Sequence record: OR677401
Origin: Escherichia phage LQ5
Reading direction: 5' to 3' (one strand)
DNA: 64,000 nt
Below the pieces are notes generated by a model, which searched no databases, had not been told where the DNA came from, and saw only the letters and a program-made list of their open reading frames with translations. The translations under genes and the position numbers were made by a program. Below, in pieces: positions 33,863 through 46,052 of the stretch. How positions within the stretch are numbered: position 1 is the first letter of the stretch; each line of letters begins with the position of its first letter.

Positions 33863-36574
33863 ATGCAAGAATTCTATTTGACAGTCGAACAAATCGGTGA
33901 TAATATTCTCGAACGTTACATCGATAAAAATGGTAACGAACGTAGTCGTGAAGTTCCATACAAGCCTACAATGTTTATGCATGCTAATCCAGAGCAAGCC
34001 GTAAAATACATTGATATCTATGGTAAGGGTTGTGTTAAGAAAGAATTCGACTCTATGCGTGATGCATCCCAATGGATGAAACGTATGGATGATATGGGCC
34101 TCGAAGCCCTGGGTATGGACGACTATAAATTAGCCTATTTGTCTGATACCTATCGTAAAGAAATCAAATATGATTCTTCTAAGATTCGTATTGCTAACTT
34201 CGACATCGAGGTAACATCTCCTGATGGATTCCCTGAACCAGCTCAGGCTAAACATCCTATCGATGCCATTACCCACTACGACTCGATTGACGATAAATTC
34301 TATGTATTCGACCTTTTAGTTTCGCCTTATGGTACTGTTGAAGAGTGGTCGATTAAAATCGCTGAGAAACTCCAAGACGAAGGTGGTGACGAAGTTCCAC
34401 AGGAAATCATTGACAAAATCGTTTATCTTCCGTTTAATTCTGAAGAAGAAATGATGCTTGAGTACTTGAATTTCTGGCAACAGAAAACTCCTGTGATTTT
34501 GACTGGATGGAACGTTGAGTCGTTTGACGTACCGTACGTTTATAACCGTCTGAAAAATCTGTTCGGTGAGAACACTGCTAAGCGATTAAGCCCACATCGT
34601 AAAACTCGTGTTAAAGTTATTGAGAACATGTACGGTGCTCGTGAAATCATTACATTGTTCGGTATCTCTGTTCTGGATTATATCGACCTCTATAAAAAAT
34701 TCAGCTTCACCAACCAGCCTTCTTATTCTCTGGATTATGTTTCTGAATATGAATTGAAAGTGGGTAAGTTGAAATATGATGGTCCAATCTCTAAGTTACG
34801 TGAGACGAACCACCAACGATATATTTCCTATAACATTATCGACGTATATCGTGTAGTGCAGATTGATATGAAGCGTCAGTTCATTCTTCTGAGTTTGGAC
34901 ATGGGTTATTATGCCAAGATGCAGATTCAGTCGGTGTTCAGTCCAATTAAGACTTGGGACGCTATTATCTTTAATAGCCTTAAAGAGCAAGGCAAGGTAA
35001 TTCCACAAGCTCGTTCACACGTGGTTCAACCTTATCCCGGTGCTTTCGTTAAGGAACCTATTCCTAACGCTTACAAATATGTAATGAGTTTCGACCTTAC
35101 ATCTCTGTACCCGAGTATCATTCGACAAGTGAATATAAGCCCAGAGACCATCGCAGGGACATTCGCTAACGCACCGATACATGAATATATTGCCGGAACA
35201 GCTCCGCGTCCTAGCGACGTCTACAGTTGCTCTCCTAACGGCATGATGTACTATAAAGACCGCGATGGTGTGATTCCTACAGAAATCACCAAGGTGTTCT
35301 TACAACGTAAAGAACATAAAGGTTATATGCTTGCAGCTCAACGTAATGGTGAGTTAATTAAAGAAGCATTAGAAAATCCTAATCTCTCGGTTGATAGTCC
35401 ACTGGATATCGATTATCGTTTTGACTTCTCTGACGAAATCAAAGCCAAGATTAAAACGCTGTCAGCACCTTCTTTAAGAGAAATGTTGTTCAGAGCTGAA
35501 CGTACCGAAGTTGCAGGTATGACTGCTCAGATTAACCGTAAGTTGCTTATCAACTCCCTTTATGGTGCACTTGGTAACGTATGGTTCCGTTATTACGACC
35601 TCAGGAACGCAACTGCAATCACATTGTTTGGTCAAATGGCCCTCCAATGGATTGAACGTAAGGTTAACGAATATCTGAATAGCGTGTGTAAGACTGAAAA
35701 CCAGAAGTTCGTGCTCTATGGTGATACTGACTCCATTTATGTTAAGGCGGATGCAATCATCAATAAAGTAGGCGAAGACAAATTCCGTGATACTAACCAC
35801 TGGGTTGACTTCTTAGATAAATTTGCACGTGAACGTATGGAACCGGCTATTGATGCAGGCTTCCGTGAGATGTGCGAGTACATGAACAACAAACAGCACT
35901 TGATGTTCATGGACCGAGAAGCTATCGCAGGTCCTCCACTTGGTTCTAAAGGTCTTGGTGGATTCTGGACAGGTAAGAAACGTTATGCACTGAACGTTTG
36001 GGACATGGAAGGTACTCGTTATGCCGAACCGCACTTGAAAATCATGGGTCTCGAAACCCAGAAATCAAGTACACCTAAAGCAGTTCAGAAAGCTCTGAAA
36101 GAATGTATCCGTCGTATGCTTCAGGAAGGCGAGGCCTCTTTGCAAGAATATTTCAAACAGTTTAATAAGGAATTTAACGAACTAAACTATGTAAGCATTG
36201 CAGCAGTATCCAGTGCTAACAACATCGAGAAATATAATGAAGGTGGATTCCCGGGTTCTAAATGTCCATACCACATCAAAGGTTGCTTAGCTTACATGCG
36301 TGCTTCTGCAGGTGATTTGACTATGCCTCGTATCGTTGATGGTGAAAAGGTATATGTACTGCCACTTAAAGAAGGCAACCCGTTTGGTGAAGCTTGTATG
36401 GCATGGCCGTCAGGTATTGAACTTCCGGTTCAGATTCGTGACCAAGTCCTCCGTTGGATGGACTACAACGTACTGTTCCAAAAGACCTTTATCAAACCTC
36501 TGACCGGTTTTACTGAGTCTGCTAAAATCGACTACGAGAAAAAAGCAACATTATTTGATATGTTCGACTTTTAA
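33863..36574 (+). CDS. 43: DNA polymerase gp43 (family B)
   Basis: exo motifs FDIEV, YNIIDV; pol motifs DLTSLYPS, YGDTDS; very close to RB69 gp43 as recalled; start trimmed to MQEFYLT. Confidence 0.97.
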   Translation: MQEFYLTVEQIGDNILERYIDKNGNERSREVPYKPTMFMHANPEQAVKYIDIYGKGCVKKEFDSMRDASQWMKRMDDMGLEALGMDDYKLAYLSDTYRKEIKYDSSKIRIANFDIEVTSPDGFPEPAQAKHPIDAITHYDSIDDKFYVFDLLVSPYGTVEEWSIKIAEKLQDEGGDEVPQEIIDKIVYLPFNSEEEMMLEYLNFWQQKTPVILTGWNVESFDVPYVYNRLKNLFGENTAKRLSPHRKTRVKVIENMYGAREIITLFGISVLDYIDLYKKFSFTNQPSYSLDYVSEYELKVGKLKYDGPISKLRETNHQRYISYNIIDVYRVVQIDMKRQFILLSLDMGYYAKMQIQSVFSPIKTWDAIIFNSLKEQGKVIPQARSHVVQPYPGAFVKEPIPNAYKYVMSFDLTSLYPSIIRQVNISPETIAGTFANAPIHEYIAGTAPRPSDVYSCSPNGMMYYKDRDGVIPTEITKVFLQRKEHKGYMLAAQRNGELIKEALENPNLSVDSPLDIDYRFDFSDEIKAKIKTLSAPSLREMLFRAERTEVAGMTAQINRKLLINSLYGALGNVWFRYYDLRNATAITLFGQMALQWIERKVNEYLNSVCKTENQKFVLYGDTDSIYVKADAIINKVGEDKFRDTNHWVDFLDKFARERMEPAIDAGFREMCEYMNNKQHLMFMDREAIAGPPLGSKGLGGFWTGKKRYALNVWDMEGTRYAEPHLKIMGLETQKSSTPKAVQKALKECIRRMLQEGEASLQEYFKQFNKEFNELNYVSIAAVSSANNIEKYNEGGFPGSKCPYHIKGCLAYMRASAGDLTMPRIVDGEKVYVLPLKEGNPFGEACMAWPSGIELPVQIRDQVLRWMDYNVLFQKTFIKPLTGFTESAKIDYEKKATLFDMFDF

Positions 36575-36576
36575 GT

Positions 36577-36606
36577 GTTTACATACCACAAGGAACGTGG
36601 TAGTAT
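36577..36606 (+). promoter_or_regulatory. T4-type early promoter
   Basis: GTTTAC ... TAGTAT then cctatcaac. Confidence 0.55.
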
Positions 36607-36636
36607 CCTTCCTATCAACTACATGAGGAAATTACA

Positions 36637-36873
36637 ATGGAAGCTTTAATCGTTAGTGCTGGTGTTTTAGGATTCGGTTCTCTGGTTATTATGTTCATCG
36701 GTTACTTTTTACCATGGATTCTGGCTCTTCTGCGAGGCACTCGTAGTAATGTCGGAATTTTCTTCCTTAATCTCCTGTTAGGCTGGACGATGATTGGTTG
36801 GGTAGTGGCTTTAATCTGGGCTATCGTCGCTGAACGTAAATCAAACGCACAAATCATTATTGTTAAGCAATGA
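36637..36873 (+). CDS. imm: superinfection-immunity (Imm)-like small membrane protein
   Basis: two TM helices with GIFFLNLLLGWTMIGWVVALIWAI; position between genes 43 and 42 as for T4 imm. Confidence 0.4.
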   Translation: MEALIVSAGVLGFGSLVIMFIGYFLPWILALLRGTRSNVGIFFLNLLLGWTMIGWVVALIWAIVAERKSNAQIIIVKQ

Positions 36874-37007
36874 AAATAATTATTTTATTTCTTATAATGA
36901 CTGCCTTTACCATTTATTGGGCAGTGGCAATTCCGCCAATGATTCCGACACTAATCATCGGATGGATTATTCTTATAGCACAAATTAAGTATAACTGTTT
37001 TAATTGA
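36870..37007 (+). CDS. hydrophobic micro-protein (45 aa)
   Basis: ATGA-coupled; single TM; not in ORF track (below 60 aa). Confidence 0.35.
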   Translation: MKIIILFLIMTAFTIYWAVAIPPMIPTLIIGWIILIAQIKYNCFN

Positions 37008-37014
37008 GGATATT

Positions 37015-37515
37015 ATGAAAAAGTTAATTATCGCAATGAGTATGCTCCTATCAGGTTGTGCGGTCCAATATGGTGATGCAGTTTCGGCTGATGAAGTTGG
37101 TAAAGCTCGTATCGCAGCTGAACAGAAACAATTCGATGGCGAAATGAAATTCCGTGCAGGTTCTGGACTTGTGTACACCCGAGCCAATAATCAATGTGGT
37201 AATAACTGTGCAAAATATGCTCAAAGGGAAATCGAATTCCAACGTGAACAAGAGTCTAAGCGTGAAGCGGTACTAGCCAAACACCAGGCAGAAATGAAGC
37301 GTCAAGATGATTTGTACAAAAAGCAGAAACTGTATGCGATGTGCGTAAACCATATCAATCTACAGATTTCCATCCACGAGGCTCGTTATTACGAAATGCT
37401 CGAAACCGAGAGCTTCGGTAAAGCTCGTGATTATAAGAAACAAATCGATAAGCTCAAGACCAAAGCACCGGCGGCAATAAAACAGTGTATTGAAATCGGT
37501 AAAGATAAGATTTAA
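37015..37515 (+). CDS. lipoprotein
   Basis: lipobox-like LLSGC after signal MKKLIIAMSM. Confidence 0.6.
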   Translation: MKKLIIAMSMLLSGCAVQYGDAVSADEVGKARIAAEQKQFDGEMKFRAGSGLVYTRANNQCGNNCAKYAQREIEFQREQESKREAVLAKHQAEMKRQDDLYKKQKLYAMCVNHINLQISIHEARYYEMLETESFGKARDYKKQIDKLKTKAPAAIKQCIEIGKDKI

Positions 37516-37575
37516 GCAATACCAATTTATTAAAAATAGTGTATAATGTACCTACATTCACTTGAGGAACAGATA

Positions 37576-39249
37576 ATGAAAAAGGTTGTTATTTTAGGCG
37601 CGGGTCTTGGCTCACGGTTGTATCCAATTACCAACGAAATCCCGAAGGTACTGGTTAACTACAAACAACATACTGTATTAAAACATTTGTATGATTTGTA
37701 TAGTAATCAATCAGATGAAATTATTCTGGTTATTCACAGCAAATTTAACGACCTCGTTAAAGGCTATATTAAATCCATTAACATGATTAATAGTGATAAG
37801 CCCAAATTCACTATTCGTAACGTTGATGTTGCCAATGGTTCGGCTCATGCTATCGATTGCATTGCCGAAGATATCATTGGGCACAATGTCTTGTTTAACT
37901 GGTGTGATATTATTCCTGAAGGTCATAAAGTTGAGTGGGATAACGACTACTGTTATACCTATGGGACTGACTGTCGTTTTACATTTGAAGAACCGTACTT
38001 GCGTGAAATTGGTACCGGTGGTGGTGTGGTTGGTTTGTATCAGGTTGCTAATTGGACAGGCTTCAACCGTTCTAATTATGGCGAAGACCTTGCTGATAAC
38101 CTGGATTCGATGGTCCATTTGACCGAACGTAAGCTGGACTTTGTAGTTGATGTCGGTGACAAATTGAAACTGGCTAAGGCCCATGAAGATTCTGAAATTA
38201 ACCGTGAATTTAATAAATTAGAGTTCACTGAGAATCTAGCTATTAAAGTACCTACAAACGAATTAGGTAAAGAAATCCAATCTAAAGAAATCAATTGGTA
38301 CAATTCTATTGATTCTGAATTCGTTCCTAGCATTGTAGACTTTGCTCCAGGTGAATTCATTAAAATGGAACGTATCTTTGGTCGAACCATGGCAGATGCC
38401 TACCGGTTTATGTCTAAAGAAACTAAAGTCCTAATGGTTTATAAGGTTATTAGTGCATTACGTTCGTTCGGTGGAACTATCGATAATCCGTCCGATGAGC
38501 AATGGTATTCTGATGTTAAGAAAGAAGTATTGGACAAGGTCCTTATTCGTAATGCTTCTATTGCCGGATTGATTGAAGGCTTTGCTCCACAGGGTATTAC
38601 CCATGTTAACGACTTCAAGGTAGGCGACCCAGAAAAACTTCTTCGTCACGCCTTAGAAATTCTGTCTGAACATAAAGAACCGTACCAACTTATTCATGGC
38701 GACCCGCACTACAGTAATATTATGTTGTCGGACGAAGGTAATATTAAAATCATCGACCCACGTGGTTATTTTGGTAATAGTTCTAAAGGCCCTGCGATTT
38801 ATGATGAAGCTAAGGTGCTTTATTCTATCGATGGTTATGACAAATTTAACTCTGACCCTCTATGGGGCGGATTAACTCGTAACGGAACTCGTGTATTCGT
38901 TGATATTGAAAAGGTTATGCCTTTAGATGATATTCCGATGTGTACATTTAAGCACAAGCTCTGGATTGCCGTTATTTGGATGGCATTGGCAGGTTACTTT
39001 AAAAATAACCCTCTGAAAGCTCTGGGCGCTTATTACAATGGGCTATATCAACTGAGTGTGCTGCTGAAGCGGCATCCTCGTAAGCGTAAGCTTATCACAG
39101 GTGAATTCGTTGATGAAGTTCGCGACCCTATCACGGCTCAAATTATCACTCGTTGTCCTGATAAGTGGGTTTTGCTTGACCAAGAAACTGGTGTAAAATA
39201 TAAACCTACAGGTTCTACCGAACTCCACAAACAATGGAAGAAAATTTAA
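37576..39249 (+). CDS. bifunctional nucleotidyltransferase / kinase (predicted sugar-1-phosphate nucleotidyltransferase fused to APH/choline-kinase-like kinase)
   Basis: N-terminus ILGAGLGSRLYPITNEIPKVL matches the NTP-transferase glycine loop; C-terminus LIHGDPHYSNIML ... IIDPRGY matches the HGD..N / D-x-x-G kinase catalytic and metal loops. Confidence 0.65.
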   Translation: MKKVVILGAGLGSRLYPITNEIPKVLVNYKQHTVLKHLYDLYSNQSDEIILVIHSKFNDLVKGYIKSINMINSDKPKFTIRNVDVANGSAHAIDCIAEDIIGHNVLFNWCDIIPEGHKVEWDNDYCYTYGTDCRFTFEEPYLREIGTGGGVVGLYQVANWTGFNRSNYGEDLADNLDSMVHLTERKLDFVVDVGDKLKLAKAHEDSEINREFNKLEFTENLAIKVPTNELGKEIQSKEINWYNSIDSEFVPSIVDFAPGEFIKMERIFGRTMADAYRFMSKETKVLMVYKVISALRSFGGTIDNPSDEQWYSDVKKEVLDKVLIRNASIAGLIEGFAPQGITHVNDFKVGDPEKLLRHALEILSEHKEPYQLIHGDPHYSNIMLSDEGNIKIIDPRGYFGNSSKGPAIYDEAKVLYSIDGYDKFNSDPLWGGLTRNGTRVFVDIEKVMPLDDIPMCTFKHKLWIAVIWMALAGYFKNNPLKALGAYYNGLYQLSVLLKRHPRKRKLITGEFVDEVRDPITAQIITRCPDKWVLLDQETGVKYKPTGSTELHKQWKKI

Positions 39250-39608
39250 TGCATCTGTGTTTTGATATCGATAATACCATTACTCACTGGCAAGATGACC
39301 GTGATTACGAAAACTTTAAACCGGACACCGAAATGGTGTCCATGATTAATAAGCTTTATGATGAAGGGTACGAGATTACCTTGTTCACTGCCCGTGGTAT
39401 GACTTCATGCGGCCCGGGTCGAATCTTGGTTGAAGTAGTTCCTGCATTAGTTAAGAACCTTGAAAAGATTGGATTGAAATATCACAATCTGCTTACACAT
39501 AAGCCGAGTTATACTTTTATCATCGATGACCGAGCAATCCGTCCTGACCACTTTAAAGAAATGGTTCGTGAAGGAACTCTTGAAACCTATAAGGCATATC
39601 ATCCGTGA
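39234..39608 (+). CDS. HAD-superfamily phosphatase
   Basis: motif I CFDIDNTIT (DxDxT), motif IV FIIDD; alternative start at 39249. Confidence 0.6.
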   Translation: MEENLMHLCFDIDNTITHWQDDRDYENFKPDTEMVSMINKLYDEGYEITLFTARGMTSCGPGRILVEVVPALVKNLEKIGLKYHNLLTHKPSYTFIIDDRAIRPDHFKEMVREGTLETYKAYHP

Positions 39609-40141
39609 AACCAAAAATCATTGTTATCGACGGCCCGGATAATTCCGGGAAGTCTACTTTAATTGAATCACTTTTATCTGATAAGAAATATCGTCTTATC
39701 GATTTCCCTAAAAAGATTAACGGCAAATGCATTTCATTAGGGACTGATAATGACAAGGCTTTAGTCGAGACGTTGTATAAGTTTTTAGACCCTAATTTTG
39801 TCTACATCTTAGACCGTGGGTATCCTAGTAATATTGTTTACTCTGGATTCCTTCGTGGTGAAATGGACCCTTATGTAGAATTAGCAGATTGGATTGATTT
39901 CAAAAAAGAATTCAATATCATTGAGATTATTTTAACCCGTAATCCATTAGATGAAGACTTTGAAGATGACCTTATTAAATTAACCAAAGATGAGTTCAAC
40001 CTAACTATCCAGCAATATGAAACATGTTTTGAAAACGTGTTTAAAATCTTAAATCACGACGGCCATAATAACTTGCTTAACGTCGATATGGTAGAATTAA
40101 AACGTCTGAATGAATATATTGAAAATAAGGTGAATAAATGA
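39605..40141 (+). CDS. P-loop (thymidylate-kinase-like) nucleotide kinase
   Basis: IVIDGPDNSGKSTL Walker A; LDRGY resembles the Tmk DRY motif. Confidence 0.6.
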   Translation: MKPKIIVIDGPDNSGKSTLIESLLSDKKYRLIDFPKKINGKCISLGTDNDKALVETLYKFLDPNFVYILDRGYPSNIVYSGFLRGEMDPYVELADWIDFKKEFNIIEIILTRNPLDEDFEDDLIKLTKDEFNLTIQQYETCFENVFKILNHDGHNNLLNVDMVELKRLNEYIENKVNK

Positions 40142-40836
40142 AACACATTACCGCTGTTAGTTTTGAAAACGCGTTTAAGCAAATGAACGAAGAAATCCTG
40201 GAAGCTCCACAGTTTGCAGTTGATTCTCGTATCGGCCGTTGTTATGAAATTGGTTCTGCTTCGGTAGAAGTACTGGATGCAAGCACCTATAAATTCACCG
40301 ACCCTCGTATTAATCGTATCAACTATGATTATGCCGAATCCTTTTGGAAGTTTATGATTTCTGGTGGTACTGACGCTGCTGAAGCATTTAAGGAATATCC
40401 TAATGTTGCTAAGTTCATTGATAAGCCGAAAAGTGACGTATTGCCTGCAAACTTCAACACTTTCTATGGACCTCGAATTGTGGCCCAACTCCCGGCCCTA
40501 CTTAAAGAGCTTAAAGAGAAGCCTAACTCAAGACGAGTTGTGTTCCAAATTCTCCAAGAACAAGACCAGGCCCTCCTTGATTCTGACGAATCCTTAGAAT
40601 ACCCATGTACCGATTCGGTGACATATTATATTCGTGATGGACGTCTGTATGCACATACTCATATGCGTTCACAGAACTGTGCTATCGTTATGCAGCTGGA
40701 TTTCTATCTGCAGGGTAAACTGATGGCCTTTATTGCTGAACAGTGTGGTGTTGGTCTGGGTACGTATTCCCATACTATGGTTAGTGCACACGTATTTGAA
40801 CGTGATTTTGACTACGTTCGAGGATTCCTGAAATGA
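40138..40836 (+). CDS. 42: thymidylate-synthase-family pyrimidine hydroxymethylase (dCMP hydroxymethylase-like, gp42 slot)
   Basis: catalytic EYPCTDS cysteine; MRSQNCAIVMQLD aligns by eye with T4 gp42 MRSNDVVFGFRND, Asp at the TS Asn specificity position. Confidence 0.65.
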   Translation: MKHITAVSFENAFKQMNEEILEAPQFAVDSRIGRCYEIGSASVEVLDASTYKFTDPRINRINYDYAESFWKFMISGGTDAAEAFKEYPNVAKFIDKPKSDVLPANFNTFYGPRIVAQLPALLKELKEKPNSRRVVFQILQEQDQALLDSDESLEYPCTDSVTYYIRDGRLYAHTHMRSQNCAIVMQLDFYLQGKLMAFIAEQCGVGLGTYSHTMVSAHVFERDFDYVRGFLK

Positions 40837-41726
40837 GTTTGTTTATCGTTCCTATTTTCAGTATGCGTAGTTACGAAACAGGTGAATATGCCGTCCTTAA
40901 GGACGGTAATTTTCAACTCCATTTAAACCGTGCTTGCCCAGGTGATTATCTGGCTTATCCTAGAAATTCGAGCGATATCAAAGAATGCATTGAATTATTT
41001 CCTGAACTGAATTTTGTACCGCTTTGGTATAAAGAAAATGCTTATGAAACTCGTAAACATTTTTGGTCTGAAAACGAGTTCGTTGTTGATTCGTTAATCG
41101 AATACTATGACTGCTCAGGATTGGTAACCGATATCACAGGTTATGATGGCACTCAGACTGTACAATTCAACTTTAACATTACAATGGACCCTGAAGTTCC
41201 TCGTTATTATATCGACGAGTTTATTGATACCGACGTGTCCTCAGTTGAACGTTCGATTTATACCACAGTCCTGAATCAATGTCAGAAAGACGTCCTGGTG
41301 TCACGAGGTGCGTCCTCTGATAAGATTTTTGTAGACCAAAAGGTAATTAATCCGGCAGTAATTGAGCGTTACTCTGAAGGCCTAGCGCCTATTAAAATTG
41401 ATGGTATTTTCCACCCATTCCGTATTTCGGATAAGTGTTATCAATTCGAAAGAGTTGTAGACCAAGCTGCGGCTGAAGGTGCTCGTCTTTATATCACCGA
41501 CCCGAATGATTCATTTAAGCGTGAAGACTATCGTCCTGATGTAGAGATTATTAAATTCAAACCGAGTAAGGTTGAATATTATCAGATTCTGAAATCAAGA
41601 CCTCATATCATTTATCATGAGAATCCCGGTTTAGTATTCCATCCTGGTCTGGCTGAATTCATTTATTTCGGTGCCCATATCCATTCTGAGCACGAAATGC
41701 CAAGTTATGAGGACGTGGTCCTTTAA
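40833..41726 (+). CDS. hypothetical protein in the beta-glucosyltransferase slot (candidate DNA sugar transferase)
   Basis: 297-aa ORF ATGA-coupled to hydroxymethylase; no recognisable T4 beta-gt similarity. Confidence 0.35.
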   Translation: MSLFIVPIFSMRSYETGEYAVLKDGNFQLHLNRACPGDYLAYPRNSSDIKECIELFPELNFVPLWYKENAYETRKHFWSENEFVVDSLIEYYDCSGLVTDITGYDGTQTVQFNFNITMDPEVPRYYIDEFIDTDVSSVERSIYTTVLNQCQKDVLVSRGASSDKIFVDQKVINPAVIERYSEGLAPIKIDGIFHPFRISDKCYQFERVVDQAAAEGARLYITDPNDSFKREDYRPDVEIIKFKPSKVEYYQILKSRPHIIYHENPGLVFHPGLAEFIYFGAHIHSEHEMPSYEDVVL

Positions 41727-45758: not shown

Positions 45759-46052
45759 ATGAAAAAGTTATTAATCGCAGCAATCCTTACAGTAGCGTCA
45801 TGTGGCACGGCTCCAGTTACGGCTGGATTGGATAAAGACCTTTGTGAATGGTCTATGACTGCAGACCAAGAATCGGTTGAACATCAGATTTATGCTGATA
45901 TCATGAACATCACTAAACGCGACCGCCCTGATATGGTTAAAGAAGTGTCAGACCAATTGGCTTCAAGCGGTGTTATGCAATATAACTATGTTTTGTATTG
46001 CGATGCCAATTTCGATAACAAAAATATCGTTAAAGAGGTGACAGGTGAATAA
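45759..46052 (+). CDS. sp: periplasmic/lipoprotein, Spackle-like by size and position
   Basis: signal MKKLLIAAILTVASC; 97 aa. Confidence 0.35.
   Translation: MKKLLIAAILTVASCGTAPVTAGLDKDLCEWSMTADQESVEHQIYADIMNITKRDRPDMVKEVSDQLASSGVMQYNYVLYCDANFDNKNIVKEVTGE

Follow-up and report, generated by a model that had tools for sequence, protein, structure and literature searches.

The early envelope-gene cluster behind the DNA polymerase gene of Escherichia phage LQ5: probably a reordered set of T4 components

Three short genes follow the DNA polymerase gene (gene 43) of Escherichia phage LQ5, and the question raised by this locus is whether the phage has enlarged the superinfection-exclusion region that T4 carries at the same place. 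The first-pass annotation of the window, that is, the whole 64,000-nucleotide stretch of sequence record OR677401 analysed here, had proposed such an enlargement: an Imm-like protein was taken together with a supposedly extra micro-protein and a lipoprotein as an expanded exclusion module. We therefore consider each of the three genes in turn, then their arrangement in related phages.

The locus and its Imm homologue

In sequence comparison, positions 36000–38000 of the window were 99.3% identical to phage QL01 and 95–99% identical to 42 further phage records, and the matches listed were Dhakavirus-like isolates, among them WG01, Bp7, and JS98. Judged by this similarity, the window is a Dhakavirus, a T4-like T-even coliphage of the JS98/QL01 type. 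Gene 43 ends at 36574, and the cluster thus indeed occupies the T4 position of imm and imm.1 downstream of gene 43, as had been noted at first sight. In the 62 nt that separate gene 43 from imm lies an early-promoter-like site (36578..36606, + strand), recognized by a consensus scan and composed of TTTACA, a 17-nt spacer, and TAGTAT, with a TG in front of the −10 element. The motif GTTTACA-N17-TAnTAT is also found 5′ of the first post-gene-43 gene in JS98, VR5, VR7, T4, S16, CIP9, and PM2, and in the Mosigvirus phiE142 it lies ahead of the lipoprotein gene of the imm locus. A scan of the locus for terminator-like sites found none. From these sequence features, a T4-type early promoter at 36578–36606 probably drives the cluster, and the three genes would be translated as a tightly packed unit. 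Each of the three ORFs strongly matches a profile family, and they are accordingly more than chance ORFs.

The first ORF (imm, 36637..36873, + strand) encodes 78 aa and has the Shine-Dalgarno sequence GAGGAA 7 nt upstream. Its product matched Pfam family PF14373 (Imm_superinfect) with 65.1 bits against a cut-off of 27.9 bits (E = 5.1e-18) and phrog_1039, 'immunity to superinfection', with E = 3e-32, and its full-length identity to T4 Imm is 43%. The hydropathy profile shows two hydrophobic maxima, at about residues 9–27 and 45–60, separated by a minimum at residues 30–39 over the basic loop RGTRSN, and when the Imm proteins of the window, T4, VR7, and S16 are aligned, R33 and W50 show no variation. 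Homologues in QL01, Bp7, and C6 are annotated as Imm (in QL01 and Bp7 under the name 'immunity to superinfection'). By family membership and hydropathy, the protein is clearly an Imm homologue, a predicted superinfection-immunity protein of the inner membrane, in agreement with its initial description as a two-helix Imm-like protein. It has in common with T4 Imm these two segments, the basic loop, R33, W50, and the locus behind gene 43, whereas it is shorter (78 aa vs 83 aa in T4), with a shorter C-terminal tail, and its gene directly follows gene 43, unlike T4 imm, which follows imm.1.

In T4, the tape-measure protein gp29 co-purifies with Imm, which binds the helical-bundle domain of gp29; moreover, T4 Imm supplied alone from a plasmid lowers the plating of T4, that is, causes exclusion, and this exclusion is weakened in the R33A and W50A mutants (preprint 10.64898/2026.03.06.709160). 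Because R33 and W50 are invariant, and in view of these results for T4 Imm, we infer the same mechanism for the window protein. Thus, when a second, related phage infects, the window Imm would attach to the helical-bundle domain of that phage's tape-measure protein, and the tape-measure protein so bound would be unable to open an inner-membrane channel, with the result that the incoming DNA would be kept out of the cytoplasm. This mechanism was demonstrated with the T4 protein and is extended here to a homologue at 43% identity. The principle is the same as for HK97 gp15, another exclusion protein of the inner membrane whose target is the tape-measure protein (preprint 10.64898/2026.03.06.709160).

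A conserved micro-ORF that overlaps its upstream gene

The second ORF (micro-ORF, 36870..37007, + strand) encodes a hydrophobic protein of 45 aa, and its ATG overlaps the TGA of imm as ATGA. When this micro-protein was used as the query, a word-indexed protein search returned two clusters only, the short length and hydrophobic character of the query being the cause; homologues were located by degenerate-pattern scans of the loci and by local HMMs. The micro-protein matched phrog_3610 with E = 1.4e-21, residues 2–45 aligning with positions 4–47 of the 47-position profile, and the micro-ORFs of T4, VR7, and phiE142 match the same family. In addition, a 96%-identical protein (P0012) carries the precomputed Pfam family PF26865. 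The T4 counterpart is an ORF of 49 aa that likewise overlaps imm as ATGA; it was found by BLASTP with E = 3e-13, and in the C-terminal 30 residues it is 53% identical to the window micro-protein. T4 and the window therefore share the overlap with imm as well as the C-terminal motif, whereas the lengths differ (49 vs 45 aa), the N-terminal halves have diverged, and the gene that follows is gene 42 in T4 but the lipoprotein gene in the window.

The motif P-x-M-[IV]-P-T...[GAS]-W...Q-x-[KR]-[YF]-[EN]-C-[FI]-[NW] is kept in 18 sequences from seven lineages, for which Dhakavirus, Gaprivervirus, T4, Mosigvirus, PEi20, Karam-like, and PM2 micro-ORFs were aligned. Across genera the dN/dS ratio is 0.12–0.43, a range obtained with synonymous sites saturated. 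The ATGA overlap is maintained with either upstream gene, imm or an isomerase gene, with a single exception (L041), in which the junction reads TAATG. A non-coding spacer or a chance open frame, to which one might turn because the ORF is short, has no strong Shine-Dalgarno sequence of its own, and is left unannotated in QL01 and in the T4 RefSeq record, is hardly conceivable in the face of these data: length, frame, and motif are conserved despite the saturation of synonymous sites, the dN/dS values are low, and both the phrog_3610 match and the PF26865 assignment of the 96%-identical protein speak against it. We reject this reading as effectively refuted by the conservation and the profile match. 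The proposal that the 45-residue ORF coupled through ATGA is real has thus stood up, even though some records pass over it. It is annotated in Bp7, C6, and JS98, unlike in QL01, and the 49-aa ORF of T4 is unannotated in both NC_000866.4 (RefSeq) and MT984581; in UniProt its entry reads 'Uncharacterized 5.6 kDa protein in Gp42-imm intergenic region', and the VR7 homologue is called '42.1'.

The single helix given to the micro-protein at first sight is a tentative feature. Hydropathy analysis of the micro-protein gave two maxima with the Pro-rich stretch PPMIPT between them. AlphaFold2 modelled it as one continuous helix over residues 2–44, a model that is built on an alignment of only three sequences and does not separate a single span from a hairpin. 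Taking profile match and selection together, the micro-ORF is a genuine gene under purifying selection, with a small hydrophobic membrane protein as its predicted product. This protein would be made by termination-reinitiation coupled to whichever gene lies upstream.

A lipoprotein of the T4 Imm.1 family

The third ORF (37015..37515, + strand) encodes 166 aa, and its Shine-Dalgarno sequence TGAGGA overlaps the stop codon of the micro-ORF. Its product begins with MKKLIIAMSMLLSGC, a signal peptide with an L-S-G-C lipobox at residues 12–15 and Ala at position +2, so the early assignment as a lipoprotein is confirmed. There are four further cysteines, C61, C65, C110, and C158; in the family alignment G14, C15, and C158 are invariant, and C110 is matched by a cysteine in 9 of the 11 sequences. 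The residue at +2 sets the sorting of lipoproteins by the Lol system, Ala, rather than Asp, directing them to the outer membrane. Since +2 is Ala rather than Asp here, the protein would carry a lipid anchor, with the outer membrane as its predicted destination, and a helical domain stabilised by disulfides would point into the periplasm.

Is this lipoprotein an addition to the T4 set? The T4 gene between gene 43 and imm encodes Imm.1, which reads MKIAILVIALGLAGC... and is itself a lipoprotein, although the T4 RefSeq record names it 'iduronate sulfatase'. The window lipoprotein matched phrog_1754 with E = 1e-51 over its full length (residues 1–163), and the same family is matched by T4 Imm.1 (2e-43), S16 (7e-46), and VR7 (3e-47), and also by phiE142, PEi20, and CIP9. 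The Pfam model of T4 Imm.1, DUF5481 (PF17578), which gives 239 bits for T4 Imm.1 and 37 bits for the phiE142 lipoprotein, was not matched by the window lipoprotein at E ≤ 1; because this model is not reached, we file the protein as the long subtype of phrog_1754 and not as a member of DUF5481. Profile-profile comparison of its subtype with the T4/RB69 subtype gave 96% probability (E = 4e-9) with signal peptides included and 31% probability (E = 5e-4) for the mature parts only, the latter weak by itself. However, the mature parts of the intermediates P0036 and P0037 match both subtype profiles, and both proteins match DUF5481. Moreover, the window lipoprotein and T4 Imm.1 share the motif Q-G-x-V-V-x-x-[DE]-[VI]-G-K after the lipobox cysteine and two C-terminal cysteines. 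As the direct match is weak, the homology is drawn from PHROG membership, bridging sequences, motifs, and synteny, and on these grounds the protein is a long-form homologue of T4 Imm.1, not an addition. The two have the lipobox signal peptide, the phrog_1754 family, and the gene 43/imm neighbourhood in common, whereas T4 Imm.1 is shorter (126 aa vs 166 aa) and has another segment where the window protein has a G-[ST]-G-x-x-Y-x-R hairpin and an NQCGNNC loop; T4 imm.1 lies upstream of imm, and the window gene downstream of imm and the micro-ORF.

Searched exhaustively with HMMER, 1.84 billion representative proteins yielded only 25 clusters at 50% identity for the lipoprotein family; nearly all of these carry the lipobox, and all the loci inspected for family members belong to T4-like phages. 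The AlphaFold2 model of the window lipoprotein has helices over residues 65–162 and is poor in the N-terminal 60 residues, the pLDDT of 10-residue blocks rising from about 53 to 97 and exceeding 90 over residues 101–160. Foldseek searches with this model found only generic helical hairpins in the PDB (best E = 0.43) and only family members in the viral library BFVD, neither set offering a functional clue. NCBIfam and PADLOC scans of all three proteins returned nothing meaningful.

T5 Llp and Cor are receptor-blocking exclusion lipoproteins. They resemble the window protein as small lipoproteins encoded by phages and made early or from a prophage, which is an analogy of kind only. A Cor/Llp-like reading of the window lipoprotein was rejected, since the match to the Cor PHROG (E = 0.014) covers signal-peptide residues 1–18 only and there is no fold match.

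Gene order among Straboviridae and possible roles of the cluster

Gene orders were derived from local HMM searches over 54 loci. T4 has the order 43–lipoprotein–imm–micro-ORF–42, and Dhakavirus and Gaprivervirus have 43–imm–micro-ORF–lipoprotein. S16 and the P0036 phage have 43–lipoprotein–imm–42 and no micro-ORF; the micro-ORF is absent also from the Dhakavirus vB_EcoM_005, where the imm stop TAA is followed after 9 nt by the ATG of the lipoprotein gene. In PEi20, Karam-like phages, and PM2, the order is 43–lipoprotein–arabinose-5-phosphate isomerase–micro-ORF–nucleotidyltransferase/kinase, and in the Mosigvirus phiE142 it is 43–isomerase–micro-ORF–nucleotidyltransferase/kinase, with the lipoprotein–imm pair about 10 kb away. 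The micro-ORF is thus detached from imm and coupled to the isomerase gene in four lineages (RB69-like, Karam-like, PEi20, and PM2); a search for the SIS isomerase gene across the window did not find it. The lipoprotein gene adjoins gene 43 or imm in T4, S16, the P0036 phage, and Mosigviruses, and in at least 155 Mosigvirus records an Imm.1-like lipoprotein gene, imm, and spackle are contiguous. For the Karam-like phages, whole records were searched by tblastn with a chimeric query at E ≤ 1e-3; in CIP9, IME523, Q7622, MY742, Kosakonia 305, Entb_45, and ZX14, only the lipoprotein part was matched, with no Imm-like match at this threshold. In these Karam-like genomes both accessory genes are present although the search detects no Imm, so that the micro-protein and the lipoprotein can occur in phages with no detectable Imm; conversely, Imm of T4 works in their absence.

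Since T4 holds the same set of components, an Imm.1 lipoprotein in phrog_1754 and a 49-aa micro-ORF coupled to imm through ATGA, and gene order alone differs, the cluster is not an expansion. The claim that the micro-protein and the lipoprotein are extras therefore fails, and a gain relative to T4 is rejected. The best explanation, and in our judgement a highly probable one, is that the locus is the Dhakavirus version of a conserved T-even cluster of early envelope genes after the DNA polymerase gene, in which the T4 components are reordered.

Whether these components act together is a separate matter. In one conceivable arrangement, a single exclusion machine would span the envelope, with the lipoprotein in the outer membrane and the other two proteins in the inner one, the small partners of Imm extending or strengthening its block of DNA injection. 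Three predicted envelope proteins do lie behind one early-promoter-like site in genes that overlap or abut; the ATGA coupling of imm to the micro-ORF is kept in T4, Dhakavirus, and Gaprivervirus, and the lipoprotein gene stays beside imm through the rearrangements in T4, S16, the P0036 phage, and Mosigviruses. We nevertheless consider such a machine improbable, for plasmid-borne T4 Imm suffices to exclude T4 (preprint 10.64898/2026.03.06.709160), the micro-ORF is coupled to the isomerase gene in the four lineages named above (some 10 kb from imm in phiE142) and missing from S16, the P0036 phage, and vB_EcoM_005, and the Karam-like phages have both small partners with no Imm-like match. The observed synteny argues against an obligate three-part module, and the micro-protein is not an obligate partner of Imm. 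A functional tie of the micro-protein to the DNA-modification genes that follow it (gene 42 in T4, arabinosylation genes in RB69-like phages) in place of imm appears more improbable still. Such a tie would fit the position of the micro-ORF between the isomerase and nucleotidyltransferase/kinase genes in RB69-like phages, PEi20, Karam-like phages, and PM2, its place immediately before gene 42 in T4, and the assignment of RB69 gp51, gp52-53, and gp55 to the arabinosylation pathway, with the gene between them left without an assignment (PMC13326640); yet it is hard to see what a membrane peptide of 45 aa would do in nucleotide-sugar synthesis, uvsX follows the VR7 cluster and no modification gene lies close by, and in S16 and the P0036 phage imm is followed directly by gene 42 with no micro-ORF.

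The lipoprotein may deserve attention on its own account. An independent periplasmic factor of exclusion or envelope protection, acting without Imm, is a tentative and rather doubtful reading; its target might be a step in the penetration of the tail tube or lysozyme of a second phage, in the manner of Spackle, or an outer-membrane receptor, blocked as by T5 Llp or Cor. Consistent with it are the predicted periplasmic location with an outer-membrane anchor, the position of the gene behind the early-promoter-like site, its clustering with imm and spackle in Mosigviruses, its persistence in Karam-like phages with no detectable Imm, and the conserved disulfide-loop motif NQCG(N/K)NC of the long subtype, which presumably resembles the loop-type inhibitor design of Ivy, a likeness we take as a lead only. 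T4 Spackle (Sp) is an early periplasmic protein of T-even phages that is involved in exclusion. Its gene comes directly after the lipoprotein–imm pair in Mosigviruses, whereas its sequence is unrelated to any of the three ORFs; the window has its own sp homologue at 45759–46052. Against the reading, the lipoprotein has no similarity in sequence or fold to Sp, Llp, Cor, or any lysozyme inhibitor, the best PDB match and the BFVD result described above give no hint of one, the S16 subtype is devoid of the CxxxC loop, and the literature searched held no function or phenotype for imm.1 or its lipoprotein relatives, the one relevant paper that mentions imm.1 being silent on function; for the micro-protein, too, it held no function. 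Nevertheless, because of the Mosigvirus block the lipoprotein can be said to travel with known exclusion genes, and a role of its own in exclusion or envelope protection therefore stays alive. That Imm.1-family lipoproteins constitute a third T-even factor of this kind, acting in the periplasm or at the outer membrane beside Imm and Spackle, seems unlikely as matters stand, and the same role for the 45-aa membrane protein is less likely. Returning to the conserved and reordered cluster, the most plausible role of the lipoprotein would be an early function at the level of the envelope, possibly an extra layer of exclusion or a protection of the envelope.

Collectively, the three genes fall into catalogued families, the phage genus is well sampled, and the region is ordinary and already known. 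It is the T4 reference annotation that makes the locus look unusual, with the Imm.1 lipoprotein named as a sulfatase and the 49-aa membrane ORF omitted from RefSeq, and the useful outcome is a correction of annotation, with little otherwise new. Beyond this, the shifting association of two conserved early envelope proteins with imm, spackle, and DNA-modification genes bears on whether exclusion by T-even phages has more than two components.

Sequences flanking the imm cluster

The early-promoter-like site between gene 43 and imm (TTTACA and TAGTAT separated by 17 nt; 36578..36606, + strand) contains in its spacer an inverted repeat, CCACaaggaacGTGG (36586-36600 of the window), and similar palindromes occur at the equivalent spacer of JS98, VR5, VR7, S16, and PM2. 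On the 3' side of the cluster, the genes at 37546-41726 appear to correspond to the cluster for cytosine hypermodification (arabinosylation) that PMC13326640 describes from RB69 and DLP3; the same paper includes the Dhakaviruses among its predicted carriers. These genes encode a 567-aa fusion of a nucleotidyltransferase and an APH-type kinase (start probably at 37576), a 124-aa member of phrog_1238 with an N-terminal DxDxT, and a kinase-like product of 178 aa that falls in phrog_761 ('thymidylate kinase'). They also include a ThyA-like gene, whose 232-aa product shows 25% identity to T4 gp42. A gene for a SIS/arabinose-5-phosphate isomerase was sought across the 64-kb window and not found. Farther downstream, a homologue of Spackle (sp; phrog_1586, E 1.5e-42) lies at 45759-46052 (+), about 9 kb from imm. 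In Mosigviruses (e.g., phiE142 and ATK47) the Imm.1-like lipoprotein gene and imm are followed immediately by sp.

Cysteine loop of the lipoprotein and annotation of its T4 counterpart

Lipoproteins of the long subtype share a conserved disulfide-loop motif, N-Q-C-G-[NKSR]-N-C (37192-37209; residues 60-65 of the window protein), which is preceded by a G-[ST]-G-x-x-Y-x-R hairpin. In contrast, T4 Imm.1 has Cx10C in place of this loop, and the S16-subtype lipoprotein lacks both of its cysteines. In the T4 RefSeq record (L007, a locus fetched for comparison; NC_000866.4 25300-27300), the product of imm.1 is named 'iduronate sulfatase', a name that looks spurious for a 126-aa lipoprotein. The T4 homologue of the micro-ORF, a 49-aa ORF between imm and 42 (3749-3898 of locus L004), carries no annotation in the same RefSeq, and its UniProt entry describes an uncharacterized 5.6-kDa protein.

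Variation of the cluster among related phages

Karam-like Enterobacter/Kosakonia phages (MN882610.1 and relatives) possess both the Imm.1-family lipoprotein and the micro-ORF, and genome-wide tblastn at E<=1e-3 gave no Imm-like match in them; imm was not found in PEi20 and PM2 within the 7-kb locus examined. The micro-ORF is itself missing from one Dhakavirus, Escherichia phage vB_EcoM_005 (L021 3438-3760), where imm ends with TAA, the ATG of the lipoprotein gene follows after 9 nt, and the ribosome-binding stretch before the latter differs. The arrangement is more suggestive of replacement by another allele than of a plain deletion. In Gaprivervirus VR25 (L016/L022), Imm shows 88% identity to the window Imm, and the alleles of Imm and the micro-protein are near those of Dhakavirus VR5 (L013). 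These Dhakavirus-like alleles are paired with a lipoprotein of the Gaprivervirus type (compared with that of VR7, L005), a pattern suggestive of recombination that swapped imm and the micro-ORF jointly and left out the lipoprotein gene.
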